DNA of 64,000 bases from sequence record NZ_CP011600.1; one strand, written 5' to 3'. Below the pieces are notes generated by a model. It was not told where the DNA came from. It worked only from the letters and a program-made list of their open reading frames with translations, and made no database searches. This DNA comes from a plasmid. Both the position numbers and the translations under genes were made by a program. Shown piece after piece: positions 5,439 to 59,296 of this stretch. Within the stretch, counting starts at the first letter, position 1. Every line of letters begins with the position of its first letter.

Positions 5439-5949
5439 CTGTGCAGATAAGTTGATGTAAGTACAGATTAAAAGTCTGTGGTTTCATCCTGTTACTGAAA
5501 GACTATCCTGTCAACAGTCCGGATGGCAGACAGGAGCGCGAGCTGTGCGTAGCGCGACCCTGAATGTGCCGCAGGCACATGCCGGCGGAAATCATGCTGA
5601 ATGCGGCACTGATCTGGAATCCGCCGGAGGACCCGGCGAAGCCGGCTTCATGATAGATGATCGCTATTAACCCCTCCGCCCTGCAAAGCCATAATCCGCT
5701 TAAAGCGACTCTGGTGCCCCTGTACGCGGTCGGAGTGGTCACGTCGAGGCTTTGCCGAAGACGGGGCGTATCTCCGCGTTAGCGGCCCGTAGGGGCGCTT
5801 ACGAGCGTGTTCATCAGGACTTATAGCGAAGAGACTTACAGCAACGCCAATCGTTAGTTACATCATCCATCTTAAAAGCGATGTTGTTCCGGGCCTCCGG
5901 CCCGGGGCGGCGGCGCTTTTCAGGGTGGGAAAGGCAGAGGAGTTTCAGA

Positions 5950-6446
5950 TTTGCACTTTCTGTTGCTCTCACAAATAGACGTATGTTGTAACTAAATACG
6001 GATTTATGCCCGTCGCATGGCGACGGGAGGTACCTGTCTTTTTCCGAACCGCGCGAGCGTTAGCTCGCTGCAGGGGCGGGCATTATCTGAGCCTGTCCAC
6101 AGGGCAGGCGACGAACAGGTTATGTATTTAAATGAGAAAGAATAAAGATATTTAAAAGAAGTACAGAGCAGGGGTTTAAAAGGAACCACGCACCCTGAAA
6201 CGATATCGTCTGGCACCCTGTAACGATTACGGTTGTCGCTTAATGGAAAGTTCCCTTGCAGTTATATGTCAACAAATGAAAATCGAAGACGAAAATCACA
6301 CCGGCCGTTATTTTTCCGGCCATTCTGCCGCGTTCCCGAATGCGGCACAGAAGAAATCCTGCACTACGTTGTTCATATAGTGAGCGGAGCCGTGCTACAG
6401 GCGTGCGAAATCCTCCGGAGCGAACCGGATATTAAAAAAAAGGGGG
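5950..6446. promoter_or_regulatory. IncFII oriR region downstream of repA1
   Basis: Location immediately 3' of repA1 (minus strand), as in R100/R1 where oriR lies downstream of repA1. GC-rich then AT-rich segments. No exact motif verified. Confidence 0.35.
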
Positions 6447-7313
6447 TCAGGAGGTGAGCGTGGCCAGCCGCGTGTAGTTATGGCCCCGGGACATCAGCAT
6501 GCGTTCTTTGACGCGTCTTGCCTGCTCCCGGCGAACGGCGTCCAGGTTACCGGTAAAACGTCCCTCAGCAATCTCACGCGTCAGCTGGCGTTTCACGATA
6601 GTCTCAATATCCCGGCGGGTACGGTCTGCATCCCGGCGGGCACGGGCACGCTTAAGGCCATGCTCCTTACGCTGAGACTGATAGCTGCGGAACCGCTCAC
6701 GTACGTAACGCCAGGCTCTGGCGATCAGCTCGTCCATTTCCAGTCGCGGCAGCTGCTGCTTTTCACGTTGCTGATTTTCCCACTCCACGCGGCTGCGGCG
6801 CGCGGCCGCCACTGCCACGTCTGAAACGTCTAGCGCAGAGAAGAATGCCGGCGTGAAAGTGATATCGGTCGGGATGTTACAGCCAATCTCCGGATCATAT
6901 TCGGTCTGGTAGGTAATCAGTCCCAGCTCCGCTATAAATTTCAGTGCCCGCGTGGCGCGGGTGATGGACAGATTGCCACTTTTCGATTCTGTGGCCAGGC
7001 CGCACTCAATGGCCAGATTGGTGATGGAGCGCTGGACGCGGTTGGCCAGAGGATCATAGTGAAAGGACAACCCCTGCAACAGCGCATCGATGGCGCGCCT
7101 GCGCAGTAACGGTGGCATACGGTGACGCATACCCAGCGAACGGGCAAAAGCAACGTGCATGGTAAAATCAAAACGCGATGTGAAGCCTTCGGCTTTCGCC
7201 ATCAGCTTACGGCAGAACGGCAGGGTCTTTTTGCCCTCTCTCGGCGTGAAAACCGGATTCGGGTTTTTTACCTGCCGGTAAAATGAGGTGTTTTCAGGTT
7301 TCTGCTCAGTCAT
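6447..7313 (-). CDS. repA1: IncFII replication initiator RepA1
   Basis: 288 aa with long near-identical stretches to R100/F RepA1 ([16 protein letters not shown]..., [46 protein letters not shown]). Start at 7313. Confidence 0.9.
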
Positions 7314-7611
7314 TCCTTCCTGCGCTTATGTTGCACAGAAGGAGCTCGCTCAGAAGGTCTTGCAGTTTTCCGGGCATAAAACTATACTCCCCGCATAGAG
7401 CAACAGCTTCTATGCAGTTTCTAAGGACCCCGTTAATCTTCTTATCCGCCAAGATTTGGAAAGATTATCGGGGTTTTGTCTTTTCTGGTTCCGGGTAGAC
7501 ACCTCATCAGAACCAGATCCCTGCCACCTTATGGCGTGGCCAGCCAGAATTCATAAACGATCTGCAATCTATCACTTCAACGGGCATACGACAAGAAAGT
7601 AATACCATTAC
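7314..7611. ncRNA. copA: copA/inc antisense RNA and repA leader (tap/repA6) control region of the IncFII replicon
   Basis: Sits between repA2/copB and repA1 exactly as in IncFII replicons, where the ~90-nt CopA antisense RNA is transcribed opposite to the repA1 leader. Exact ends not determined from sequence. Confidence 0.4.
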
Positions 7612-7878
7612 CTATTTATCGAGCTCATCAAATGCCTGTTGTAATAAGCGTTCTATATACTCTGCCTGAGTCAGACCAGCTTTCTCACACTCAACTACAA
7701 GCCTGTCTTTAATAGCGTTTCGCAGATAAATCTTCAGCTCTTTATGCGTAAGTTTTTTTCTGGCCACTGCAGCCTGCTGTTTCTCAGAGGCCGACATAGG
7801 GCTTCCTTTACGATAAGGTCGCTTGGTCTTTGTTGAGGTAGTGGCTGCATTTAAAGGCTGCGACATCTCTGCCTCCAC
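7612..7878 (-). CDS. repA2: RepA2 / CopB transcriptional repressor of repA1
   Basis: 88 aa, ...SASEKQQAAVARKKLTHKELKIYLRNAIKDRLVVECEKAGLTQAEYIERLL..., matching F/R100 CopB ([25 protein letters not shown]...). Confidence 0.8.
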   Translation of the reverse strand: MEAEMSQPLNAATTSTKTKRPYRKGSPMSASEKQQAAVARKKLTHKELKIYLRNAIKDRLVVECEKAGLTQAEYIERLLQQAFDELDK

Positions 7879-8009
7879 AGGATCAAAAAAGGATCAATTG
7901 GCAGAGAATACTACAGTTATCTGAAATCAGCGACTTAACTTTACCGACGCTGTGACCCGCGTTGGCGCGCGGGTTCACGGGTTGAGATGAGTGATACAGG
8001 TGTTATGAA

Positions 8010-8543
8010 TCAGTACGAGGGATGCCAGTCGGCACCGGCATCCCAGCGGGACTGCCAGTGCGCCAGGTAAGTCTGTGCCAGAGACGGCATATCCCGTACA
8101 ACCAGTGCATTCTCGGAATTGGTGTTAGCGGCGCTGCGTGTGTAGTTAAACGACCCCAGCTCCACGTTCTGCCCGTCGGTGATGATCACTTTGTCGTGCA
8201 TAATTTTGTACTGTCCGTTGGTCCGTAGCGGAATGCCGGCACTGGCCACGACGTTCATCGCGGCCTGGCTGGCTTTGCCGAGGTTACCTTTTTCGTCCAC
8301 CACGACCCGGACGTCCACGCCCCGGCGTTTCGCGGCAACGAGTGATTTCACAACGTCCGGAGATGTGAAGCTGTAGCCCATCAGGCGGATACTGTCGTGC
8401 GCGTCGTCCAGCGTCCGGATGACCAATTGCTCTGCACTCCCCTCGGGTGAAAAACCAACATCGACAGAGGGGGTGGCCAGAGCAACACCGGTTGATGTCA
8501 TCAGCCACATGACCGTGGCGACGCCTGCTATTCTGAATCTCAT
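8010..8543 (-). CDS. nuc: Phospholipase-D-family periplasmic endonuclease (Nuc-like)
   Basis: HKD motif context IMHDKVIITDG. N-terminal signal peptide MRFRIAGVATVMWLMTSTGVALA. Start at 8543 preceded by AAGGAAGAG SD. The longer ORF to 8618 is a spurious upstream extension. Confidence 0.75.
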   Translation of the reverse strand: MRFRIAGVATVMWLMTSTGVALATPSVDVGFSPEGSAEQLVIRTLDDAHDSIRLMGYSFTSPDVVKSLVAAKRRGVDVRVVVDEKGNLGKASQAAMNVVASAGIPLRTNGQYKIMHDKVIITDGQNVELGSFNYTRSAANTNSENALVVRDMPSLAQTYLAHWQSRWDAGADWHPSY

Positions 8544-8654
8544 ATCTCTTCCTTTTTCATCATTCCGGCGGATGCTGGCCGGATTAATAACCTGCTGTGT
8601 CTTTTTATAGTGCGGCACATTACCGGCATACTGCCTGGCTCCGGTGCCATACTC

Positions 8655-9455
8655 TTATTTCCCTTTCGCCCTGGCAATGGCCTGCTGCATCACTGCCTCG
8701 CTGACCACACCAGGGAGTACGGTGGTGTTTTCCGGGGTGGCATTCTCTGCCGGCATAACGATGATCCCCGGCGTTCCGGTCAGTCCCAGCACACCGGCCA
8801 GTTCATCATTGCTTTTGATGAGCGTATCGGACTGAGCGTAACTGTTCACATCTTCCGGCCCGGCCCCGGCCGCAGACGCCACTGACTCAATATCCTGTGC
8901 CGTCAGGTGGCCCTCATTATGACCGGTACGGTAAATCCCGTTGTGATACGCCATATACGCCTCTGCGCTCTGTTTGCGGAAAATAGCCAGTCCGCGTCGC
9001 GAAGCCTGTGTTGACTCCGCATAACGTGAGGCAAAAATCGTCCAGTCCCGGAAGACAAACCGCACGTCCGGGCTGGCTTCCATCACTTTCTCCATGACCG
9101 GTGCCATCGCGCTGCAGGCGATACACTCATAGTCGAAAAATTCCGTCACAATCACCGCAGAATTGGCCGGTCCTTTTACCGGCACGCCATCGAGCTGCAT
9201 CAGCAGGCGATGCGATGCTACTGCTGCCTGCACATAAGCCTGATTACGCTTCTGCGCCTGACGGGCCTGCAGTTTCTGACTCACCTCGATGAGCACGTCC
9301 GGATGCGCAACCAGGTAATCGGCGGCGATTTCACCGATGCGGTCCTGCTGCGCGGCCGTGAAGTCAGTTCCGTCTGCAGCAGAAGCAGGAACAGAAGAAA
9401 TGAGCGTGCTCATGGCCAGCATCAGGATGGCCACGTTGATGGGGGATTTTTTCAT
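8655..9455 (-). CDS. DsbA-like thiol:disulfide oxidoreductase (thioredoxin fold, CIAC active site)
   Basis: Signal peptide MKKSPINVAILMLAMSTLISSVPASA, then a thioredoxin-like domain with FFDYECIACSAM (CxxC). The 354-aa ORF extends upstream as Arg-rich junk, so the true start is placed at 9455. Confidence 0.7.
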   Translation of the reverse strand: MKKSPINVAILMLAMSTLISSVPASAADGTDFTAAQQDRIGEIAADYLVAHPDVLIEVSQKLQARQAQKRNQAYVQAAVASHRLLMQLDGVPVKGPANSAVIVTEFFDYECIACSAMAPVMEKVMEASPDVRFVFRDWTIFASRYAESTQASRRGLAIFRKQSAEAYMAYHNGIYRTGHNEGHLTAQDIESVASAAGAGPEDVNSYAQSDTLIKSNDELAGVLGLTGTPGIIVMPAENATPENTTVLPGVVSEAVMQQAIARAKGK

Positions 9456-9528
9456 GTTTGTCTCGTGTATGCTGCAGGAATCCCTGCAGGATAAGTGATG
9501 CGGCCTCCGGAAATGCCGGCCGCACGGA

Positions 9529-49433: not shown

Positions 49434-50054
49434 ATGAAAGTAAAAGAAAAAATGGGTGACGGTCGTGGCAGGCCGCGAAAATATGCCAGAGGAGAAATGC
49501 AGTACCGGAAATTATGGTTACCGGAAAATTTACTGATGGAGCTGCGAGTGGCAGCAAGGGTCAGAAATTTCACCACCAATGATGAAATCATCAGCCGTCT
49601 TATTGCTTCGTTAAACTTTTCGCCGCGCCGGCATATTATCAAAACGGATGAAGGACAACGTCTTGTAGCGCTTGCACGGTTATTTGATGAGTTTCTTCAG
49701 GCAAGACTCGATGTGATTCGCAAAAAATATCAGGCAGAGAAAATCAGTGACAACGGTAAAAAAACATTTGTCCCGGGAAAGAACCGCGCATTCAGCAGCA
49801 GTTTCCCGGAGAATTTACGCCGGGATATGGAAGTCAGCGCCCGGTTTAACCGGCGAAGTATGAACAGGGAAATCATGGAGCGGCTTCTGGATTCACTGAA
49901 TTATTTAACCGAACAGCAGTTACCCGAAAATGAGGAAGTCTGGCGACTGCGTGAACTGGCAATACTGTTTGATGAGTTTATTTCAGGGAAAGTGGTAAAA
50001 GCAGAAAATCCGCTCACGAAGGAAGTGGCAGGTGAAGAGAAAAAAGAAGAGTGA
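49434..50054 (+). CDS. Tandem ribbon-helix-helix DNA-binding protein (TraY-like, two RHH repeats), divergent from traA
   Basis: 206 aa from an SD-preceded ATG. Two internally repeated modules each with a RHH signature (KLWLPENLLMELRVAARVRNFTTNDEIISRLIASL and SSSFPENLRRDMEVSARFNRRSMNREIMERLLDSL) followed by L..LA.LFDEF helices. Confidence 0.6.
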   Translation: MKVKEKMGDGRGRPRKYARGEMQYRKLWLPENLLMELRVAARVRNFTTNDEIISRLIASLNFSPRRHIIKTDEGQRLVALARLFDEFLQARLDVIRKKYQAEKISDNGKKTFVPGKNRAFSSSFPENLRRDMEVSARFNRRSMNREIMERLLDSLNYLTEQQLPENEEVWRLRELAILFDEFISGKVVKAENPLTKEVAGEEKKEE

Positions 50055-50597
50055 AGTTATAAGCAACCATTACGCATTATTAACGTTCTGAATCAGTACG
50101 GGCATTGTCTGTTTCACTCTGTAAATATACACACCGCAATAAGAATCCGTAATGTCACGGGGTAACGTCTCCCGATATTATTGCCATATCACAGCGACCT
50201 TTCACAGCGAATAAGGAAATCAGAAAGCGGGTGGCGTAAATGCCACCCGACACCGTCTGTAAAAACACACTTAAAAAATGCAAACGGGTCACCTCAGCCT
50301 CATGCATCGAAAAGCCTGTCCACAGCGTTATTTCGCGTATCTGTCCACCCACAACCATAACAGAATACACAGCCAGCCAGGACAGAACGCCAGAATCTTG
50401 CGACTTACAGAGCCCACTACAGAGATATCCTTCGCCGGGAAACCGGGCGGTAAATACGCTCCCGTTATTCGATATCAGCATCACGCATAAAAAACAGGGA
50501 GAGGAAACCGTCAGTGCTGAGAGGATACGTTCAGACCGGAAACATAAACACGACCGGCACGCTTCCGGTCATGCTTTATTTTTTTAAAACAGGGTAT

Positions 50598-50987
50598 TTA
50601 TTCTTCCTGAATAAAGTGTTTACTTTCTGCCTTATCTTCCGCATCGGACATCCCGGTAAGATTCAGGTCCATAAGCGCTTCCAGTTTATCCTGAGTGTTC
50701 TCTCCCCTGATTTGCAGATACATTTCTGTCATCATGGCCATCATGATACTCGTACCTTCACGCGTACCGGCCACCCTGCGTATTAAGTCACGATTGAATC
50801 CTTCCATATCGAATTTATTCCCTTCGCTCTGATGCTTTTTGACCATCAGGCCAATGCCGACCAGTTCATTCACCACGGACGAGAAGTTAACCTCGCCATG
50901 CGTGGCGCCGTTCTGCATTTCAATCTGGACCAGCTCCAGCACTTCCCGCTCGGTCTTTTCCTTGAAGTAGATGTTTCTTCGGCCCAT
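50598..50987 (-). CDS. traM: TraM relaxosome accessory protein
   Basis: 129 aa. Similar in size, position (adjacent to oriT) and architecture to F TraM (N-terminal RHH-like DNA-binding region, C-terminal tetramerisation domain ending in an acidic tail). Confidence 0.7.
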   Translation of the reverse strand: MGRRNIYFKEKTEREVLELVQIEMQNGATHGEVNFSSVVNELVGIGLMVKKHQSEGNKFDMEGFNRDLIRRVAGTREGTSIMMAMMTEMYLQIRGENTQDKLEALMDLNLTGMSDAEDKAESKHFIQEE

Positions 50988-51124
50988 TGTCCTGTCACCT
51001 CATGCCGCGCATAATGAAAACGCCCGGCAGTTATATGAATTAACGTAAATACGCTCACGCGGATGTAATATAAATTTGATGCGCGGGGATAACCTGTCCC
51101 GGATAATTATTCTCTCCGCATTCA

Positions 51125-51510
51125 GTGTGTGTCAATCCGGCACTGAGTAATATTTTTTTCAGGTGTGTGAATCCGGCACTGTTCACACCAAAAAGGTGTG
51201 TTAATTCAGCACTATGTATCAAAAACGTGTGTGTCAATCCGGCACTATACTGCGTTTTCGTGTGTGTTAATCCGGCACTGTGCCCTGTTTTTATGTGTGT
51301 TAATCCGGCACCATTCAGTATTTTAATGTGTGTCAATCCGGCACTGCACGCTGAAAATTTATCTATAATTCACTGATTTTAAATAATAGCCACAATAAAC
51401 ACACACCACAGTGCCGTTTACAGTGCCTGATTGACACACAATTAGGCACTGCATTGACACACAATCCGGCACTGCATTAACACACAATTAGGCACTGAAA
51501 CATGTGTTAA
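51125..51510. repeat. Array of ~12 copies of a 19-bp motif TGTGTGT(C/T)AATCCGGCACTG: 7 direct copies with ~33-bp periodicity (51125-51346) then 4-5 inverted/degenerate copies (51400-51510)
   Basis: Direct copies begin at 51125, 51162, 51195, 51227, 51259, 51293 and 51326. Inverted copies include cagtgcctgattgacacaca (51421-51440). Located between the traM promoter and oriT. Confidence 0.75.
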
Positions 51511-51559
51511 TTAACACACACTTTGATTTGAACAGGCTAAAAACAGGCAAAATATCAAT

Positions 51560-51625
51560 GTAAGCAACTGTTTTAAAAAACAAAAACTGCAAGATGAAAT
51601 CTTGCGTGGGGTGTGATGAAACTAA
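51560..51625 (+). promoter_or_regulatory. oriT: F-like oriT core with nic site ~51613/51614 (GCGTGGGGTGT|G) and adjacent inverted repeat gcaagat-gaa-atcttgc
   Basis: Sequence aactgcaagatgaaatcttgcgtggggtgtgatg matches the F/R100 nic region (TTTGCGTGGGGTGT|GGTG) including the conserved IR. Plus strand is the nicked/transferred strand, leading region to the right. Confidence 0.6.
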
Positions 51626-51791
51626 AAGAAGAAAAAGCGGCTTGTGAAATAGATCGAAGTTGTTGGATTTATTATATCTCTGTCTCCTTTCAGGGATGTG
51701 CAGCAAGCGCCCCGTGCGCGTCTGTAACGAATTATCTTGCAACGGATGATCTGAACGCGTATTTTTCACAAAAAACCGTCAGGCACATTTT

Positions 51792-52361
51792 GTGCGCGCA
51801 TATGAGATTATCAGAATGAAATGGTTAGCTATCGCTGGCTTTGCTGCCGTATTCAGCGCACAGGCCGCGCCGGAATTATGTTTCGATGAAGCTGGTCGTG
51901 ACTATGGTATTGATCCCACGCTTCTGATGGCAATATCAATACAGGAGAGCCGGTTAAATCCGACAGCCATTAACAGCGCCAGTGCGGGCGGTACAGAAGA
52001 CGTCTGTGCGATGCAGCTCAACAGTAATAATTTCGGCAAGCTGAAAAACTTCAATATCACGCGTAAGGATCTGCTTAATAATCCCTGCATCTGCGTGTAC
52101 AGCGGCGCATGGATTTTAGCCAGAAACTTCCAGGCCTACGGCAGGAACTGGGACAGTGTGGGAATGTATAATACAGGACCGAATCCAAAACTGATAAAAG
52201 CAAGGCGTGAATATGCGAGGATCATAAAAAGCATCTACACGGTACTGCTCGCCAGAAAACAGTTACTTGAGAAAGGCACAGGCGATCCCGTTAAAACGTC
52301 GCCATTCAGTGAAAATGCTGACCAGAGAACACCGGTGAAAGACGAAAAAAAGCCCGGTTAA
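51792..52361 (+). CDS. Lytic transglycosylase (F orf169 / R1 gene 19 / geneX family, SLT domain)
   Basis: 189 aa with signal peptide. Motifs (CFDEAGRDYGIDPTLLMAISIQESR, GAWILARNF, GMYNTGP) match F Orf169 ([25 protein letters not shown]). Confidence 0.85.
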   Translation: MRAYEIIRMKWLAIAGFAAVFSAQAAPELCFDEAGRDYGIDPTLLMAISIQESRLNPTAINSASAGGTEDVCAMQLNSNNFGKLKNFNITRKDLLNNPCICVYSGAWILARNFQAYGRNWDSVGMYNTGPNPKLIKARREYARIIKSIYTVLLARKQLLEKGTGDPVKTSPFSENADQRTPVKDEKKPG

Positions 52362-52377
52362 CCGGGCTTTTTATTTT

Positions 52378-53199
52378 CTAGCTCTTGAGCTTCGCAAACT
52401 CTTCGGCCATTTTCCACAATGCCTGATTAAGCTTTATGTCTCCGTCAATCCCTGTTACCGGGCGTGTGGTTGTATTTTTTCCTTTGGCCGTTCTGCCACG
52501 TAAACCACCCTTGATCAGGTTTTCCTGCACAGTGTTGTAGGTTGTCCAGAGGTCGGTTTGTTTATCTTCATAACGGCGCGGAACAAGAATTTTCTCTGCC
52601 GTGACGGGCGCTTCTTTGCCATCGTATTTAATATCGAGTGCGGTATTAGCGAGAAGGATTCTTTCGTCAGGAGAAACCGTGATCCCTTTCATCATCTCAA
52701 TATTTTCAGTGACATTATCAAATATCCCGAGCACCTCATATGCCCCTTCGATAACCTGCCCGACAATATCCCCTTTGTGAGGCACATTGATTTCCCCGAA
52801 TGACTTCCAGCAAACCAGACCATTCGTGCAGACCTGCCGATACATACCGGGGATCATTTTATAACTGCTGGACCCGTCGTGTGAGTTCAGTAAAAGAATC
52901 TCCGGCACTTCTTTACCCGAAAAATTATCGCCGCGACGTAAACGCAACATATGTTTCGTGAATTCCCGGCGGTCCGGATTACGTACACGTGACTGGCTGG
53001 CGTAATACGGCTGGAATCCCTCTTCACGCAGGCGATCCAGTAATGCGATGGTCGGAATATAGGTATATCTGTCAGAGCGTGATTCGTGTTTTTCCACTGA
53101 AAACGCGCTGGGAACAACACGCATCAGTTCATCATTCGTGAGAGGACGATTCTGGCGAATTGATGTCGGCGCAGCATAACGTGATGATAAACGGATCAT
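52378..53199 (-). CDS. DUF932-family leading-region protein (F orf273-like)
   Basis: 274 aa from the ATG at 53199 with a perfect AAGGAG SD. N-terminus MIRLSSRYAAP...RPLTNDELMRVVPSAF...HESRSDRYTYIPTIALLD.LREEGFQPY.ASQSRVRNP is typical of DUF932 proteins found next to oriT. Confidence 0.6.
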   Translation of the reverse strand: MIRLSSRYAAPTSIRQNRPLTNDELMRVVPSAFSVEKHESRSDRYTYIPTIALLDRLREEGFQPYYASQSRVRNPDRREFTKHMLRLRRGDNFSGKEVPEILLLNSHDGSSSYKMIPGMYRQVCTNGLVCWKSFGEINVPHKGDIVGQVIEGAYEVLGIFDNVTENIEMMKGITVSPDERILLANTALDIKYDGKEAPVTAEKILVPRRYEDKQTDLWTTYNTVQENLIKGGLRGRTAKGKNTTTRPVTGIDGDIKLNQALWKMAEEFAKLKS

Positions 53200-53209
53200 G
53201 GTTATCTCC

Positions 53210-53512
53210 TTAAAAATAATTAGCAGGTACAACACGAAATAAAAAATCGAGTGGCAGAGCAGCTGCAACTGGCCAGCCGTTGCTGATCCAGACAGCGCAG
53301 TAATCCGGGATACCCTTTTCAAATACGTTGAGTTCTTCCGCATCTGCGGGTGGGGTGAAGTCGTGGCATTTCGCGCCCGGAATATCATCCGTCGCAGCAA
53401 AAACCCAGTTAAAGAGGTCGATGATCTGCCTGTCAGTCAGGCATGTGTTTTGATCACATCTTCCGGCGGTTTCTTCTCCGGCGCTTTTGACGTTGACGTT
53501 CTGTGTGTGCAT
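53210..53512 (-). CDS. Leading-region small protein (shares N-terminal MHTQNVNVK.AGEETAGR module with 55416..55787)
   Basis: 100 aa with a strong SD (GAAGGAGAAAA) embedded in repeat A. Rest of the protein is unique. Confidence 0.4.
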   Translation of the reverse strand: MHTQNVNVKSAGEETAGRCDQNTCLTDRQIIDLFNWVFAATDDIPGAKCHDFTPPADAEELNVFEKGIPDYCAVWISNGWPVAAALPLDFLFRVVPANYF

Positions 53513-54045
53513 CCTGGTTTTCTCCTTCGGTGATGGTTAATCCATCTCCCTTGGCTGGTACTCTCGCGGCAACGGGCAGAGTAGCGACGGCAGACGAATG
53601 ACCGAATGGGCGTCACCGGAGGCCGCAGCGCAAGCGAGTCGTTTACGGCGAGTGCGAACGGGCGAGGAACGGCAACGCGTACCCATTCAGGGCAGGCGGA
53701 TGACGGTGCTACGAAATGCCCTCCGCGTGAGGACGGCAAGGGTGATGGCCTCACCGGACTGGCAGGATGCACACACCCGACCCGGCAACGTCATATCGCC
53801 GGGTCGCCCTTAAAGCGCCGGCGGCCACGTCGCCGGTGCGGTGAGAGCGGCGCGTCCCCCGGACGCAGCAAGCGCGCCCTAGACCTTGCCATCGGACACT
53901 AGCGAGCAGCCCGAAACCGCGCAGCGGGTTCGGCGGAGCTTAGCCGGCGGCCTGCCGCCGGGTTAGCGGAGTGTGGCCCTGACGACCCGGCCGGAACGGA
54001 CGGGGAGCCGAAGGGGGCCAGTGCCCTGAAGAGGTTTTTTGTGTT
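53440..54045 (-). repeat. Leading-region repeat unit A (Frpo/ssi-like single-strand promoter element plus shared RBS and first 18 codons)
   Basis: ~600 bp, >90% identical to 55715-56320 and (distal ~420 bp) to 57570-57995. GC-rich with multiple internal palindromes. Lies immediately upstream (minus strand) of small ORFs. Confidence 0.6.
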
Positions 54046-54149
54046 CAGTGATCGGGAAAAGACGAATAACCAGGACAGGAATATGCGCCGGCACAGCAGC
54101 AAACATGTCAGGAATACGGGAGAGGGTAAGACACTATGTACCAGGCGTA

Positions 54150-54220
54150 CGGGGAAAAGGGGGCGCGCCGCAGGCGCCCCCGTCCTGCCCGGTTCCCCGC
54201 AGGGGAACGCCCTTCCCGGC
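54150..54220 (-). terminator. Hairpin plus U-tract (cgggggcgcctgcggcgcgccccc TTTTCCCC on minus strand) and palindrome gttccccgcaggggaac downstream of the 54243..54599 gene
   Basis: GC stem followed by a T-run on the coding (minus) strand. A near-identical palindrome (gttccccggaggggaac) recurs at 58372-58392. Confidence 0.45.
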
Positions 54221-54242
54221 CGTGGCCGTTCCGGGCAGATGA

Positions 54243-54599
54243 TCAGCCGATTTCACCCTCTTCCATTTCAACGTACATCTCGGCAGCCATCATTAACGCC
54301 ATGAGTCCATTATGGTGCGGCGTGGTGATGCCAACCTGTTCACACAGGTGCATCAGATCGGCCAGGAAATCGATGATCACGGTCTCCATCTCTTCTGAAT
54401 CATTGGCCAGGCCAGTACGCTCAGCAAACAACCAGAGTGCCTCTGCCGCCAGGGCGGCGCGGTCTGCATTGTTCCAGACAACAGCCGGTGACGGGCGGCC
54501 GGAAACATTCGCCGCCAGATCGGCAAGCTCAGACGCAGGCAAGGATTCACCGCGACTCGCTCCCAACGCAGGCCCCATTTCTTCTTGTGCTTCTGACAT
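54243..54599 (-). CDS. Small highly acidic leading-region protein (DNA-mimic / anti-restriction candidate)
   Basis: 118 aa, strongly D/E-rich (…EEMETVIIDFLADLMHLCEQ...EMYVEMEEGEIG). No recognisable fold. Confidence 0.45.
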   Translation of the reverse strand: MSEAQEEMGPALGASRGESLPASELADLAANVSGRPSPAVVWNNADRAALAAEALWLFAERTGLANDSEEMETVIIDFLADLMHLCEQVGITTPHHNGLMALMMAAEMYVEMEEGEIG

Positions 54600-54889
54600 G
54601 ATGAGTTCTCCTGATGGTGGGTGATAAGGCCGCCATTACTGGCGGCCCCGTTTATTACGCCTCAGCCTCCATCCGGGCATTTACGGTAGTCATGAACTGC
54701 TGCCAGAATTCAAAACGCAGCGCGGGCATATGCGCGCGTTTTCCTGCTTTCAGGGCATTTACAAACGCGTTTGCCTGTGCGACGATTTGCGGGTCAAATA
54801 TCATGGATTAGTCCTCCATAGTGGTTTTGATGTGGACAGCACCTCGACCGTGCTGCCCGTTGATTAAGCAGGGTTGCCACCCTGCTTTT

Positions 54890-55354
54890 TTAATGCCCGG
54901 AATTCAGTTGCTTCTCCGGACAGAAACGGGTGATCACATCCTCGATCAGCGCTTTATGTTTCAGGGTGTGCAGGTCATGGCACTCAAAGAAACGCCCCTC
55001 CACACTCACAAAAATTGCGGTCACATCGCCGCCCGTAAATTCGCGCGACTTGAACGACTCCCCGCCAAATCCCCGGCACCAGTCCAGCGGCGGAAGAACT
55101 TCGAGCTGGTCGATGTACCGGGCTTCGGAAATCTCCACCCACGGACGGCGATAACCCAGGTTTTGCGCTTCCTTCACTTCGGAAAAAGACAGCAGTTCTG
55201 TGTCCGGGTAGATACGGCGCACGGCGTTCAGTGTTTTCGCACCATATTCGGTCACCCATTCGCCGTCCTGCTGCCTGGCCCAGGCATAGACGGTGTTGCA
55301 GGACGGGACATAAAACGCCATCGATGGGGTATTGAGAATTTCAGTTACGGACAT
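54890..55354 (-). CDS. Leading-region hypothetical protein
   Basis: 154 aa, good codon usage, co-directional with other leading genes. No family assignment possible by eye. Confidence 0.45.
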   Translation of the reverse strand: MSVTEILNTPSMAFYVPSCNTVYAWARQQDGEWVTEYGAKTLNAVRRIYPDTELLSFSEVKEAQNLGYRRPWVEISEARYIDQLEVLPPLDWCRGFGGESFKSREFTGGDVTAIFVSVEGRFFECHDLHTLKHKALIEDVITRFCPEKQLNSGH

Positions 55355-55415
55355 TCTTATCTCCTTAGTGATGGTGGCCGGTTACCCGGCCGGGTCGTTG
55401 CGGTTAACGTTCCGG

Positions 55416-55787
55416 TCAGTAATCAGCGGCCAGTTCAGACAACAGCAGGTCGCATTCATCCTGTGCCCGCGCCTCCTCTGACGCAGTTACCATGTAACCC
55501 CGTTTAGCCGCCGCACCGATGAAAGCAGGGCGGTCATTCAGCGGCAGTTTTGCCAGGTGAATCATCGCCATCGATAAGAGGCGGGCTTCATAAATCTCGT
55601 AGTACAGCCCACACCCACGGTTTGCCTGTTTTTCCATCCGTGCCAGAACCACATCGGCGCGAATAACGTCGAACGGGTTACGTGAATGAATGTTTGTGAT
55701 AAAGCCATCAGTACGCATTGGTTTTATCCCCCATCTTCCGGCGGTTTCCTCTCCGGCGGTTTTGACGTTGACGTTCTGTGTGTGCAT
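55416..55787 (-). CDS. Leading-region small protein (shares N-terminal module with 53210..53512)
   Basis: 123 aa. First gene after repeat unit B. Identical first 9 codons and an SD identical to the gene after repeat A. Confidence 0.45.
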   Translation of the reverse strand: MHTQNVNVKTAGEETAGRWGIKPMRTDGFITNIHSRNPFDVIRADVVLARMEKQANRGCGLYYEIYEARLLSMAMIHLAKLPLNDRPAFIGAAAKRGYMVTASEEARAQDECDLLLSELAADY

Positions 55788-56320
55788 CCTGGTTTTCTCC
55801 TTCGGTGATGGTTAATCCATCTCCCTGGCTGGTACTCTCGCGGCAACGGGCCGAGTAGCGACGGCAGACGAATGACCGAATGGGCGTCACCGGAGGCCGC
55901 AGCGCAAGCGAGCCGTTTACGGCGAGTGCGAACGGGCGAGGAACGGCAACGCGTACCCATTCAGGGCAGGCGGATGACGGTGCTACGAACAGCCCTCCGC
56001 GTGAGGACAGCAGGGGAGATGGCCTCACCGGACTGGCAGGATGCACACACCCGACCCGGCAACGTCATATCGCCGGGTCGCCCTTAAAGCGCCGGCGCCC
56101 GTCGCCGGTGCGGTGAGAGCGGCGCGTCCCCCGGACGCAGCAAGCGCGCCCCGGACCTTCGCCATCGGACACTAGCGAGCAGCCCGAAACCCGAAGGGGT
56201 TCGGCGGAGCTTAGCCGGCGGCCTGCCGCCGGGTTAGCGGAGTGTGGCCCTGACGACCCGGCCGGAACGGACGGGGAGCCGAAGGGGGCCAGTGCCCTGA
56301 AGAGGGTTTTGCTTTGAATG
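55715..56320 (-). repeat. Leading-region repeat unit B (Frpo/ssi-like)
   Basis: Near-identical to unit A (e.g. gtagcgacggcagacgaatgaccgaatgggcgtcaccggaggccgcagcgcaagcgag...). Ends with ...gggggccagtgccctgaagag. Confidence 0.6.
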
Positions 56321-56560
56321 CATCCTGGAACACCCGGTAACAGCACGCACACAGGCAGCCACCGGAAACCGCAGCACACCCGGACCCACTCACCGGATAT
56401 AATGATGAGAGTGACGCCGCGAAGGGGGAGGCCCGGTGCGTCAGCACCGGCTTCCCCCGGCACGCAGTGCCGGTGGTTTTCGGGCCGTGCGCCGGGGCAG
56501 GCCACCGGGCAGACGGCTCCCGGTCTGGTACGCACCAGGAGCCTGTGGTGATGAGCTGTC

Positions 56561-56863
56561 TCAGGCCGGTTGTTTTCTGTTAAACGTGACGGCGTAATCG
56601 TCATAACTGAGACAGCCCCGCAGCCGCGTGAGCCTGACCACATTCTCCGCCAGGCCATTCATCGTCAGTATCCGCTCGATACCTGCAAAGAGGTCTTCAC
56701 GCTCACCGAGCGGAAACCAGAGGTTGCTGTTGCTGCCGCTCAGGAGCGGATGGCCGCAAAAATGCACTCCCCTGCCCTGCCTGGTCAGGCAGACCGTAAC
56801 AGTGATATCAGCGCGGATATGCTCTGCTGATGTACTGAGACCAGGTTGTCCGGTCATTTCCAT
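56561..56863 (-). CDS. Leading-region hypothetical protein
   Basis: 100-aa ORF, second gene after repeat unit C. Confidence 0.35.
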   Translation of the reverse strand: MEMTGQPGLSTSAEHIRADITVTVCLTRQGRGVHFCGHPLLSGSNSNLWFPLGEREDLFAGIERILTMNGLAENVVRLTRLRGCLSYDDYAVTFNRKQPA

Positions 56864-56934
56864 GATGTTCTCCTTCCTGCGAATTCAGATGATGTGTCAC
56901 CCCGGCAAGGCCTGCCGGGGTGTGGCGCCGTGAT

Positions 56935-57513
56935 TCAGCGGACGTACTGCCAGTGACAGAAGGGACTCTCGTCGTCCCCTTTTTTCAGGTGTTCACGGGC
57001 GTACTTCTCCAGTCCCTTGTGTTCTGCCTCAAAAATCGCTCTCGCATCGTCGTTCATCACACCGGAAGCCATATAGACCTGCGTTGTTTCGTACTCGGCT
57101 GTTTCCGCGCACTCGTCATCGCCGATCCGGTTAGCACAATGCACCACCCTTGCTTCCCATGTTTCCGGCACGGCCTGCGGCTGCGGGCGGTATACAAACA
57201 CCGTGACCAGCAGTTTTTCCTGCGGTTTTATCAGCATCATCTCGATACCTGAACGGACACCCCTGTCGCCAAAAACCCACTCATCGAGCGCGAACCGCGC
57301 GGCTGACAGATACTCAATGCCCATGTCAAACGACGTGCGAATTGCAGCCGTATTCACTGCCGGGGATCCGGGAATAAACAGGCTGCGGCGATACGAACGC
57401 GCAGCACGTTCCCGGATGTCGTTAACATCACGGTTTAATGCCGTTGAATTCTGGTTTTCACCCCCTGTTTCGGCGGTTGTGGTTGCGGCGGTTTTGCTGT
57501 TCTGTGTTTTCAT
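56935..57513 (-). CDS. Leading-region hypothetical protein with acidic C-terminal half
   Basis: 192 aa. First gene after repeat unit C. Start MKTQNSKTAATTTAE resembles the MHTQN... module. Confidence 0.45.
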   Translation of the reverse strand: MKTQNSKTAATTTAETGGENQNSTALNRDVNDIRERAARSYRRSLFIPGSPAVNTAAIRTSFDMGIEYLSAARFALDEWVFGDRGVRSGIEMMLIKPQEKLLVTVFVYRPQPQAVPETWEARVVHCANRIGDDECAETAEYETTQVYMASGVMNDDARAIFEAEHKGLEKYAREHLKKGDDESPFCHWQYVR

Positions 57514-57569
57514 GCTGGTTCTCCTGTGTTGGTTACTGAAACCCTGTTTCGGTCGGAATGGCGCGGCAA

Positions 57570-57995
57570 AGGGCCAGGTAGCGACGGCAGACGAATGACC
57601 GAATGGGCGTCACCGGAGGCCGCAGCGCAAGCGAGCCGTTTACGGCGAGTGCGAACGGGCGAGGAACGGCGAGGCGAACCCATTCAGGGCAGGCGGATGA
57701 CGGTGCTACAGCAGCCTGACGCAGCCATCGCCCGGAACAGGCTGTACCGGCGGAGGATGAGCATGAAAACAGACAGAACAGTGCCCCTGCCCTGAGAGGC
57801 CGCGTGCGGCCGGTGAAAGCGGCGCGTCCCCCGGACGCAGCAAGCGCGCCCCGGACCTTTGCCATCGGACACCAGGAGCAGCCCGAAACCGCGCAGCGGG
57901 TTCGGCGGAGCTTAGCCGGCGGCCTGCCGCCGGGTTAGCGGAGTGTGGCCCTGACGCCCCGGCCGGAACGGACGGGGAGCCGAAGGGGGCCAGCT
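57570..57995 (-). repeat. Leading-region repeat unit C (Frpo/ssi-like, shorter)
   Basis: Shares the proximal ~150 bp and distal ~200 bp with units A and B, with a unique central segment. Confidence 0.55.
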
Positions 57996-58078
57996 TTCAG
58001 ATGTTCATTTTTCTGTTTTTTGTGGTGCTCTGGCGTATGCTGGAATTGCGCAAAAAAAGCGCAACCGGAGGCGTTCTC

Positions 58079-58336
58079 ATGTCAGAAAATGAAGACGAAG
58101 ATGATGCTGAAGACGCGTTTTACGACGAGACGTGCAGGATAGTGGGCCAGTGCTGCCTGATGCTGGCCATCAACGATGCAGAAACCGACCGGGCGCAGCT
58201 GGTATACCAGTTGAAACGACTTCACTGGAAAATCATGCAGCTGACCAGTGAATCCCACAACGGGATACTGATGGCCATCGGGCAACTGGAGACGGCGGAG
58301 ATGTATGAGGAGAGGACGGGCAGGCGGCGGGAATAA
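58079..58336 (+). CDS. Small acidic hypothetical protein (plus strand)
   Basis: 85 aa from an ATG preceded by a GGAGG SD (MSENEDEDDAEDAFYDETCRIV...). Opposite orientation to the other leading genes. Confidence 0.35.
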   Translation: MSENEDEDDAEDAFYDETCRIVGQCCLMLAINDAETDRAQLVYQLKRLHWKIMQLTSESHNGILMAIGQLETAEMYEERTGRRRE

Positions 58337-58539
58337 AGCGGAAGCGCCGCGGGCGCATCCGCCCTTCCCCCCGTTCCCCGGAGGGGAACAGTGTTTCCGG
58401 GATGTTCATGCGTGCGGCCGCGCCCGGAACGAAAAGGGGGCTGCCAGTCGGACAACTGACAGCCCCTTGTAAAGGCGCTTTCGGCAGAACTGACCCCCTC
58501 AGCCCTGAAAAGGCGGGGTTTCCCCCGCCTCCAGGTAGC

Positions 58540-58698
58540 TTACTTACCGGATTCGTAAGCCATGAAAGCCGCCACCTCCCTGTTCGTGTCCCTGTACCGG
58601 ATTTCGCAGAGCGATTTACGGGTCAGGTAAGTGAATATCAGCAGTGTGAGACACACTATTAACACGCACCAGAGCAGGGTACTTCGTGGCAGTTTCAT
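58540..58698 (-). CDS. hok: Hok/FlmA type I toxin
   Basis: 52 aa [52 protein letters not shown], near-identical to F FlmA/Hok. Not in the ORF track because <60 aa. Confidence 0.85.
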
Positions 58699-58769
58699 AG
58701 CTGACTTCTCCTGTCAACGCAAAGCAGAAGTGTCACCATCGGTGCGAAACAGAGATGTCATGCTTTGGT
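58699..58769 (+). ncRNA. sok: sok antisense RNA / mok leader region of the hok locus (approximate)
   Basis: Position immediately 5' of hok on the opposite strand, as in hok/sok and flm loci. Exact transcript ends not determined. Confidence 0.35.
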
Positions 58770-59057
58770 TCAGAGAATGCGTTTGACCGCCTCGCTATAT
58801 ACTTCCGAGCGTTCTCTTTTCCCAACAGAAATCACGAAAACGACAACTTTCTCGTCTATAACCTGGTATACAAGGCGATAGCCTGAAGACCGGAGCTTAA
58901 TCTTGTAACAATCAGGCATACCACGGAGCTTGTTTGCTTCAATCCGGGGTGACTCAAGTACTTCAACCAGCTTCTTTTTCAACTGTTCACGTACCGTCGA
59001 GCCCAGCTTTCGCCATTCCTTTAGTGCCCGCTCGTCAAAATCCAGAAAATACGCCAT
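58770..59057 (-). CDS. relE: RelE/ParE-family toxin (StbE-like)
   Basis: 95 aa, RelE/ParE fold signature (...RLVYQV..E.VVVFVISVGKRERSEVY). Overlaps the antitoxin stop by 1 nt. Confidence 0.8.
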   Translation of the reverse strand: MAYFLDFDERALKEWRKLGSTVREQLKKKLVEVLESPRIEANKLRGMPDCYKIKLRSSGYRLVYQVIDEKVVVFVISVGKRERSEVYSEAVKRIL

Positions 59058-59296
59058 CAGAGTTCATCCAGCGTCACACGTACTGGCTTAGGATTACAAA
59101 GTCGTTCTTTCACTATCTCCACAAGTTCAGCATCTTCATCACTCAGGAGTGTCTGTTTGAACGGCAAGCGTTCATTGTCAGCGATATACTCGAGCATGAG
59201 ACGAAGCGCTTCAGAAGGAGTTACGCCCATTTTTTCAAGCGCGGCGTAAGAACGCGCTTTAAGTTCATCGTCAATACGTAGGTTAATGCTACCCAT
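59057..59296 (-). CDS. relB: RelB/DinJ-family antitoxin (StbD-like)
   Basis: 79 aa. N-terminal RHH (MGSINLRIDDELKARSYAALEKMGVTPSEALRLML). Upstream gene of the TA pair. Confidence 0.75.
   Translation of the reverse strand: MGSINLRIDDELKARSYAALEKMGVTPSEALRLMLEYIADNERLPFKQTLLSDEDAELVEIVKERLCNPKPVRVTLDEL

Follow-up and report, generated by a model that had tools for sequence, protein, structure and literature searches.

Within the F plasmid's leading region, two repeats of ~555 bp that are 89% identical lie upstream of ygeA/DUF932 and of ssb; known as Frpo1 and Frpo2, they are needed for early expression in vivo (PMC9849209). Single-stranded DNA (ssDNA) promoters of classes 1-3 have been mapped by rapid amplification of 5' cDNA ends (5'RACE) (PMC12672017), and the validated single-strand promoters, those of F and pESBL, are only a handful. 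Early expression from the incoming single strand decides the establishment of resistance plasmids in new hosts. The present analysis concerns three direct, co-oriented repeat units of ~600 bp, designated A, B and C, in a 64,000-nt stretch of plasmid DNA (NZ_CP011600.1), here called the window, which is part of an IncFII-like conjugative plasmid. The repeats are probably units of the Frpo/ssi (single-strand initiation) type, in which an ssDNA promoter and a priming signal are combined, and serve as modular operon heads. Their Frpo/ssi-like identity, proposed in an earlier reading of the window (the original prediction), is well supported by a hairpin on the transferred strand, a strand asymmetry in 43 of 43 homologues, compensatory changes, and an upstream block that is common to F Frpo1/2 and the IncI ssi units.

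The units were delimited by a repeat search and a three-way alignment. A and B are 97-98% identical over 53457-54045 and 55732-56316. Unit C is 92-95% identical to them in its upstream block (57811-58017); the three units also have in common a central, nearly invariant stretch of ~150 nt. The outer hairpin arms of C are divergent (63% over a 278-nt repeat), and its left edge is placed by structure at ~57496. The identity above 90% that had been given to all three units thus applies to A and B throughout and to C only in parts. The GC content is 0.67-0.70 within the units versus 0.46-0.58 in the surroundings, and each unit stands directly upstream of a minus-strand operon of two (A), four (B) or two (C) genes, as predicted. 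From the gene outward along the + strand, a unit consists of the template of the start module, a hairpin of ~280 nt with, in the window, a GC-rich apical cassette named W-type, and a block of ~200 nt named block 1:

53503-53778, + strand: long imperfect hairpin of unit A, with W-type apical cassette (DNA folding, alignment, covariation)
55778-56050, + strand: long hairpin of unit B, W-type (fold z -5.97)
57496-57790, + strand: long hairpin of unit C, with W-type apex and both outer arms different from those of A and B (fold z -3.54)
53826-54045, + strand: block 1 of unit A, a conserved six-helix element (profile and covariation)
56098-56318, + strand: block 1 of unit B (profile and covariation)
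57798-58017, + strand: block 1 of unit C (profile and covariation)

The strand that is transferred is given by oriT, the origin of transfer, to the left of the units:

51601-51619, + strand: F-like nic region in oriT, CTTGCGTGGGGTGT/GATGA (sequence match)
50598-50987, minus strand: traM-like gene, left of the nic-like site
51792-52361, + strand: SLT transglycosylase gene, right of the nic-like site
7395-7482: CopA antisense RNA, elsewhere in the window (Rfam match)

The sequence CTTGCGTGGGGTGT/GATGA, which matches the F nic region, is placed between the traM-like gene and the SLT gene. As it stands on the + strand, this is the transferred strand and enters 5' to 3' toward higher coordinates; consequently, all minus-strand genes between 52378 and 57513 have this strand as their template. 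The proposed arrangement, three units right of oriT with the transferred strand as template of all eight open reading frames (ORFs), is therefore confirmed, and both the location and the strand are those of class 1 Frpo/ssi elements. Direct repeats of 33 bp (TGTGTGTTAATCCGGCACT…) are found at 51130-51353 (+) and 51400-51520, with five copies detected at 51162-51353 and probably more; inverted copies stand immediately before the nic-like site. The array is probably a binding array for relaxosome accessory proteins of the TraM/TraY type in oriT.

Folded as DNA, the + strand forms a long hairpin of ~275-290 nt in all three units. The fold of unit A as ssDNA has -149.5 kcal/mol and a z-score of -4.40 (B, -5.97; C, -3.54), and the complement of this unit reaches -1.79 with DNA parameters and -1.87 with RNA parameters. 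In unit C the outer arms are changed on both sides, yet the same hairpin still forms. A long transferred-strand stem-loop (~300 nt) that is stabler than chance, as in class 1 Frpo/ssi, is thus present.

Homologues of the hairpin and of block 1 were drawn from at least a dozen genera of Enterobacterales, on plasmids and plasmid-like contigs. Forty-six full-length hairpin homologues were collected, and alignment A5 comprises 43 sequences. With DNA parameters, the transferred strand is stabler than its complement in 43 of 43 hairpins (means -67.8 vs -54.5 kcal/mol) and in 100 of 102 copies of block 1; with RNA parameters, the transferred-strand sense is stabler in 41/43 hairpins and 89/102 block-1 copies, and since the sequences are related these comparisons are consistent trends and not independent trials. 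Dinucleotide shuffling of 20 homologues gives a mean z of -6.0 for the transferred strand versus -3.2 for the complement, the former being lower in 19 of the 20. In A5, 31 basal and mid-stem pairs are formed in 95.9% of the cells, compared with 88.1% in shuffles and 38-57% in slid controls. Double changes are seen at 15 of these 31 pairs, a number reached by 0/500 shuffles, and about ten variable wobble positions (C:G<->T:G<->T:A) retain their pairing on the transferred strand.

The base of the hairpin includes the start of the gene. The segment GTGTGTGCATCCTG, complementary to the spacer, ATG and codons 2-3, is paired with CAGGATGCACACAC ~270 nt away; in unit A, where the ATG is at 53512-53510, the far partner of this whole segment is 53760-53778. 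The start-codon helix has six covarying pairs, and ATGCAC vs ATGAAC, for example, covaries with the distant arm. Units A and B have in common the Shine-Dalgarno sequence (SD), the ATG and 18 codons, MHTQNVNVK[S/T]AGEETAGR, with a single amino-acid difference at codon 10 (Ser vs Thr), and then continue into unrelated coding sequence. The fusion of one start to different genes is as the original prediction described it, and its portable module of promoter, ribosome-binding site and start is borne out by a start codon and codons 2-3 that lie inside the basal helix and covary with the far arm.

Alignment A5 contains a single conserved basal frame and three alternative apical cassettes. The frame is formed by GCGGCAA.GGGC / GCCCTCCGC, the near-invariant CGGTGCTAC and the start-codon helix. 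The majority of the sequences carry an F-like cassette (…AAAAAGTTTTGGCGGAGTGCATTTCACCCCTTGGATGACG…), a short cassette is the second type, and the W-type cassette (GGGCGTCACCGGAGGCCGCAGCGCAAGCGAGCC…GGCGAGTGCGAACGGGCGAGGAACGGCG) is found in 12 of the 43, namely in the three units of the window and in copies from Kosakonia, Citrobacter and Pantoea. The W-type apex is near-invariant in sequence and shows little covariation, which suggests, from the alignment, a sequence-specific recognition. Chimeric relatives combine the same basal frame with the F-like apex.

Block 1 is the ~200 nt beyond the hairpin and contains several short GC-rich hairpins. A long-range helix, with AGACAC/GTGTGG-type pairing, closes a junction over two of them. 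The sample consists of 102 distinct copies, and alignment A3 of 21 sequences including F and IncI. In A3, 41 pairs in six helices are 91.3% paired vs 75.0% in shuffles and 27-42% in slid controls, and 25 pairs show double changes, which 0 of 500 shuffles reach. Invariant single-stranded motifs are GGCGGAGC, GACGAC and GGAGCCGAAGG. Three GGAG motifs are also conserved, and their sense-strand complement, CUCC, is anti-SD-like. A PriA primosome site was considered as the defining feature of block 1 and discarded: the PriA-site hexamer, AAGCGG, is present in only some copies.

Block 1 is widespread. Searches with blastn find it in at least 5000 plasmid records and at least 14,332 places, mostly block 1 alone. 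A block-1 profile, iterated once, matches both F units (E 4e-25 and 4e-23); the F block-1 matches lie at 13436-13618 of the F leading-region stretch (L001), just outside the 351-nt ssiD/Frpo sequence (13657-14004). The profile also matches an IncI plasmid upstream of ssb and ardA, beside F-type hairpins, as well as pOXA-48-type plasmids and pEL60 (IncL/M) and Pantoea, Enterobacter and Kosakonia plasmids. A pKpQIL-like Klebsiella IncFII plasmid has four copies, and within each related plasmid the copies are co-oriented. In the IncL/M plasmids block 1 occurs without the long hairpin, at 5952-6133 of NZ_CP068884.1 (pOXA-48-type) and 11952-12132 of pEL60, and the next gene start follows after ~165 nt of AT-rich DNA. 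This makes block 1 a module that can be separated from the long hairpin. No description of it was found in the recent ssDNA-promoter and leading-region literature, the older subscription literature lying outside the search.

A contig scan with the pattern TTCGGCGGAG-N(48-72)-GGAGCCGAAGG gave hits in many GC-rich phyla, and the idea of a universal RNA that these hits raised was dropped. By inspection and a block-1 hidden Markov model, 54 of the 117 loci are chance matches, those inspected being mostly inside coding regions, and the genuine matches are essentially all from Enterobacterales. Three short contigs labelled as a Ferruginibacter metagenome-assembled genome or Streptomyces bear genuine copies; most likely, they are enterobacterial plasmid contamination of the assemblies.

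The closest described elements are F Frpo1 and Frpo2 (ssiD; ssp1a/ssp1b). They are alike in their place in the leading region, co-orientation and use of the transferred strand as template, and they too are units of ~550-600 bp in several copies, with a two-module layout and a homologous block 1: the transferred strand of the F repeat forms a hairpin of ~320 nt, with a cluster of short GC-rich hairpins after it (z -7.3). As in F, where Frpo1 precedes a small ORF and then DUF932, unit A is followed by these two genes, and the first ORF has a similar N-terminal motif. In pENT-812c (CP026189.1), a near-identical plasmid, a related unit heads a ParB-like/psiB/psiA operon, which is the Frpo2 position in F. 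The units are thus found in the same positions as Frpo1 and Frpo2. On the other hand, no hairpin of the window has a direct BLAST match (E < 1e-6) to F ssiD/Frpo or to ColIb ssi1-3, and a profile is needed. The block-1 profile matches the flank of Frpo1/2, and the chimeric intermediates link the window and F hairpin types. The apical region of F, AAAAAGTTTT...GTGCATTTCACCCC, differs from the GC-rich and near-invariant cassette of the window, and the predicted base of the F hairpin is ~45 nt upstream of the ATG, whereas in the window the base includes the spacer, the ATG and codons 2-3.

Close relatives of the units were listed only as low-certainty 'Frpo*' candidates by Samuel et al. 2024 (Nature 635:186; Supplementary Table 2). 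Over ~420 nt, the units share 62-64% identity with 'Frpo* 5' (S. enterica; E 1e-26 to 1e-31). Block 1 resembles the 3' part of 'Frpo* 4' (insect metagenome), at ~70-75% identity, and the W-type core is ~71-73% identical to 'Frpo* 1' (insect metagenome) over ~80 nt. Each candidate appears in the list as a sequence of 400 nt, with 'considerable differences in the -35 and -10 elements', and no dissection into frame, cassettes and upstream block was found in Samuel et al. 2024. In contrast to the window units, Frpo* 5 has an F-like apex and not the W-type.

The same role is proposed for ssi1-3 of ColIb-P9/pESBL (class 1), for class 2 (klcA/ardA; F Frpo3/ssp2) and for class 3 (M.EcoGIX) (Wen et al. 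2025, PMC12672017), which are likewise hairpins upstream of leading-region operons. The IncI units upstream of ssb and ardA share block 1 beside the hairpin, and class 2 is similarly GC-rich (68.6%). These classes have 5'RACE-mapped starts and recognisable boxes, and the window variant has neither. The single-strand origins (sso) of rolling-circle plasmids and the priming signals of phage G4/phiX type (PMC7690428) are also structured ssDNA that is read by the host polymerase or primase before the complement exists. Unlike the window units, they show no coupling to an SD and ATG and do not recur as operon heads.

The anatomy of the units, together with the analogy to F and pESBL, suggests the following mechanism. 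The hairpin and block 1 would fold on the transferred strand as it enters the recipient, ahead of complementary-strand synthesis. The host RNA polymerase would start inside the hairpin, use the 5' arm as template and exit through the base into the operon, giving an early and transient ('zygotic') expression. The same transcript may prime the synthesis of the complementary strand. Subsequently, duplex formation would destroy the structure and switch the operons off. A transcript begun inside the hairpin has one arm only, so its SD and ATG would be free. On the other hand, read-through RNA from duplex DNA would have both arms, with SD and ATG buried; this hiding of the start codon is deduced from the hairpin anatomy.

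A further proposal, which we put forward tentatively and hold less likely to be right than wrong, joins two statements: that block 1 is a functional ssDNA element in its own right, which can be separated from the promoter hairpin, and that the W-type is a fourth class of ssDNA promoter, lacking sigma-70 boxes. Block 1 could then act in the handling of polymerase, single-strand-binding protein or helicase, in priming, or as insulation between successive single-strand promoters, and the W-type may sit within a basal frame by which the start codon of read-through RNA is sequestered. Elements of this kind are known, and the family was flagged at low certainty in 2024; we believe that the start-codon-containing frame, the exchangeable cassettes (one of them box-less) and the widespread, separately conserved upstream ssDNA structure are undescribed.

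Several observations weigh against an assignment of the units to single-strand promoters. The original prediction had expected a hairpin with -35/-10-like elements; the hairpin is there, as the fold z-scores (-4.4, -6.0 and -3.5) indicate, and the boxes are not. In a consensus scan, no sigma-70 promoter is seen upstream of the three operons or within the units, and the sole match in the region lies inside the DUF932 gene (2.3 expected by chance). The A/T-rich UP/-35/-10-like apical region of the F type is absent from the W-type cassette, which replaces it. Consequently, the reconstituted -35/-10 of class 1 is lacking. A TTG-like triplet that follows 'CCC' is the best candidate; it stands 16-18 nt upstream of a near-invariant TGcTAC (extended -10-like) that is followed by a conserved internal loop. 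This candidate is weak: a T at -7 is missing, and in the window copies the triplet is TTC and not TTG. Motifs of sigma-32, sigma-E and sigma-54 were also considered in the W-type arm and rejected, as nothing is conserved across the members by eye and consensus search. The W-type hairpin and apex have no significant similarity to the F class 1 and class 2 hairpins (class 2 being Frpo3/ssp2, L001 6392-6747) or to the IncI leading-region stretch examined. Two conserved A:C positions of the hairpin would be G:U pairs on the sense strand. In block 1 the wobble counts of the well-supported helices (G:T 49 vs C:A 27) come from helices that disagree and leave the strand undecided, so the strand call is based on energies. 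Finally, the 43 hairpins and 102 block-1 copies are phylogenetically related, and the paired tests overstate their independence.

The units could serve complementary-strand synthesis only, as priming signals or roadblocks like the ssi sites or F ssp2, with the operons expressed from elsewhere. Frpo was in fact originally isolated as a signal for single-strand initiation, with an RNA that primes DNA synthesis, F ssp2 is a structural roadblock resolved by UvrD, and both the absence of recognisable boxes in the W-type cassette and the IncL/M copies of block 1 without a long hairpin would suit such a role. Priming alone, however, has no need for a unit that abuts SD and ATG and supplies the first codons, a coupling that is kept in 43 homologues. 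No alternative operon promoter is detectable, and the hairpins studied in F and pESBL (Frpo1/2, classes 1-3) drive transcription (PMC9849209, PMC12672017). We consider this account unlikely, and a similar judgement, if anything a shade more sceptical, applies to an action at the RNA level, where the units would belong to the minus-strand mRNAs, as long structured 5' leaders or as 3' ends, and govern their translation or stability. With the spacer, ATG and first codons in the hairpin base, a transcript with both arms would hide the start; the sense strand folds somewhat better than chance (z -1.9 in unit A; mean -3.2 in 20 homologues), the two A:C positions become G:U on it, and the three GGAG motifs of block 1 become CUCC. 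The greater stability of the transferred strand in both modules and the pairing kept on this strand at ~ten wobble pairs argue against it, as do the lack of an Rfam family and of an upstream duplex promoter to make such a leader; moreover, the homologous F units are shown ssDNA promoters (PMC9849209). A secondary RNA-level role beside that of ssDNA promoter is possible.

It is very improbable that the units encode non-coding RNAs of transferred-strand sense, antisense to the operons. No promoter-like site is present on the + strand in or beside them, the only terminator-like matches of this strand there (56294-56307 and 57485-57500) are weak stems of 5-6 pairs, and the elements, of 500-600 nt, are fixed to gene starts and have F homologues that act as DNA (PMC9849209), even if the strand asymmetry would suit RNA equally well (41/43 and 89/102 with RNA parameters). 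A weak AS-pc01 match (E 0.014) with a plus-strand terminator exists in the region, at 54799-54890, and thus outside the units; Rfam searches at gathering and E <= 5 thresholds give no family inside the units, only CopA elsewhere and this weak match between two ORFs. Most improbable of all is a selfish or neutral origin, as miniature mobile elements or recombination scars without function. The copies within a plasmid are indeed far more alike than those of different plasmids (A/B 97-98%), and they mediate gain and loss of cassettes. Against this stand a position and orientation strictly conserved in the IncF, IncI and IncL/M plasmids examined, extensive compensatory changes, invariant single-stranded motifs such as GGAGCCGAAGG, and the absence of a transposase and, in the repeat search, of terminal inverted repeats. 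Frpo/ssi-type units that head operons therefore remain the preferred reading.

The turnover of such cassettes is seen in the comparison with pENT-812c. The window at 50000-54039 corresponds to 5544-9583 of this plasmid with 99.98% identity, and the window at 55708-58712 to 8977-11985 with 99.0% identity. The two blocks overlap in pENT-812c by one 607-bp unit (8977-9583; window 53433-56314), so the window exceeds that plasmid by exactly one unit and operon B with its four genes (2275 bp). This one-unit difference is a signature of unequal recombination between units, and homologous recombination between them adds or removes whole cassettes of promoter and genes.

The locus suggests that the units are assembled from interchangeable pieces, namely a structured block on the upstream side, a basal frame with the start codon inside it, and apical cassettes that can be swapped. 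Block 1 is common to clinically dominant plasmid types (Klebsiella IncFII, IncI and IncL/M pOXA-48). If functional, it would be a sequence and structure handle for leading-region operons, and therefore for candidate anti-defence genes, in thousands of plasmids, as well as a target for studies of how RNA polymerase and the replisome handle incoming ssDNA. The repeats would then explain the turnover of leading-region cassettes by unequal recombination.

The operons headed by the units consist of orf100a and DUF932 (A), of orf123, orf154, orf49 and orf118 (B), and of orf192 and orf100b (C):

52378-53199, minus strand: DUF932 protein, 273 aa, second gene of operon A (Pfam PF06067, E 1.3e-48)
53210-53512, minus strand: orf100a, first gene of operon A, in the ygeA position of F (codons 1-18 from the repeat)
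54243-54599, minus strand: orf118, acidic, last gene of operon B (phrog_3963, of unknown function, E 3.5e-10)
54655-54804, minus strand: orf49, operon B (no family match)
54890-55354, minus strand: orf154, operon B, weak DUF1419 match (Pfam PF07215, E 2.8e-06)
55416-55787, minus strand: orf123, first gene of operon B (widespread Enterobacterales family)
56561-56863, minus strand: orf100b, second gene of operon C (no family match)
56935-57513, minus strand: orf192, first gene of operon C (small orphan family; sub-threshold Lambda_ea8_5, E 0.01)

All eight ORFs have a GGAG/AGGAG-type SD with normal spacing. They are the first ORFs after oriT and have the transferred strand as template, as expected of an anti-defence island. 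From this context, an anti-defence or establishment role of the eight proteins is plausible, and they are a reasonable but unproven pool of such factors. Searches of Pfam, NCBIfam, PHROG and PADLOC detect no ArdA, ArdB/KlcA, Acr, PsiB, orphan methyltransferase or SSB among them, and tblastn with the F SSB, PsiB, ArdB, methylase and ParB-like protein gives no match in the whole window. The suggested comparison of the small ORFs with the Ard, Klc, Ocr, Psi and Acr families yields no link in Pfam, PHROG, PADLOC or the PDB. The statement that none of the eight resembles the usual leading-region set is literally correct, but one of them belongs to a leading-region family and a second, orf154, matches another weakly. 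The DUF932 protein is 66% identical to the F DUF932 in the YgeB position downstream of Frpo1 (BLASTP E 4e-140, L001:14439-15260), and both the YubP/YgeB family (4661 members) and a DUF1419 family, the latter as leading-region-enriched, are listed in Supplementary Table 1 of Samuel et al. 2024.

The remaining proteins are less placed. The product of orf100a is 63% identical to the homologue in the same position of a Kosakonia plasmid, and has only the N-terminal MxTxN[VI]xV in common with the F protein in the ygeA position. The family of orf123 has no known function; its confident AlphaFold model (predicted local distance difference test, pLDDT, 84) shows a repeat-encoded N-terminus (residues 1-20) that is predicted to be disordered, and has no meaningful PDB match. 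Many homologues of orf123 have ~100-107 aa and cover only ~80% of it; with these shorter homologues and an internal Met24 preceded by GGGGGA, the 23 repeat-encoded residues may be an N-terminal extension or leader. Some UniRef entries of this family are titled 'Dopa decarboxylase protein remnant'. The products of orf192, orf100b and orf49 are orphans in the Pfam, NCBIfam and PHROG searches.

The original prediction singled out the product of 54243-54599 as extremely acidic and typical of DNA mimics. The protein (118 aa) is acidic, with 21 D+E, 4 K+R, a net charge of -17 and an isoelectric point of 4.06, but 'extremely' is overstated: its charge is less extreme than that of Ocr or ArdA. The orf118 family is small (18 clusters), and the AlphaFold2 (AF2) model is a low-confidence four-helix bundle (pLDDT 62, predicted template modelling score, pTM, 0.37). 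There is no Pfam match, and neither a PDB profile search (E <= 1) nor Foldseek against the PDB (E <= 0.001) returns anything. The DNA-mimic likeness thus finds no sequence or fold similarity to Ocr/ArdA, and nothing beyond the acidity supports it.

Within operon B, the stretch at 54799-54890 (+) matches Rfam AS-pc01 ('Antisense to pHK01_035') weakly, with 32 bits vs a gathering threshold of 79 (E 0.014). Its end is marked by a clean terminator of the + strand (54866-54887), between orf154 and orf49, and a small antisense RNA may be located here. A terminator-like hairpin of the minus strand, GGGGGCGCCTGCGGCGCGCCCCC followed by TTTT, is found at ~54155-54185, between the orf118 stop and block 1 of unit A; it is unlisted in the terminator scan because of its short T run, and it points to an end of operon B ahead of the next unit.

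A small acidic ORF (58079-58336, + strand) to the right of unit C is annotated as DUF2767 in related plasmids. Beyond it are a Hok/Gef-type toxin ORF (58540-58698, minus strand) and a RelE/RelB pair (58770-59296, minus strand). The similarity to pENT-812c ends at 58712, where the latter plasmid continues with psiA/psiB.

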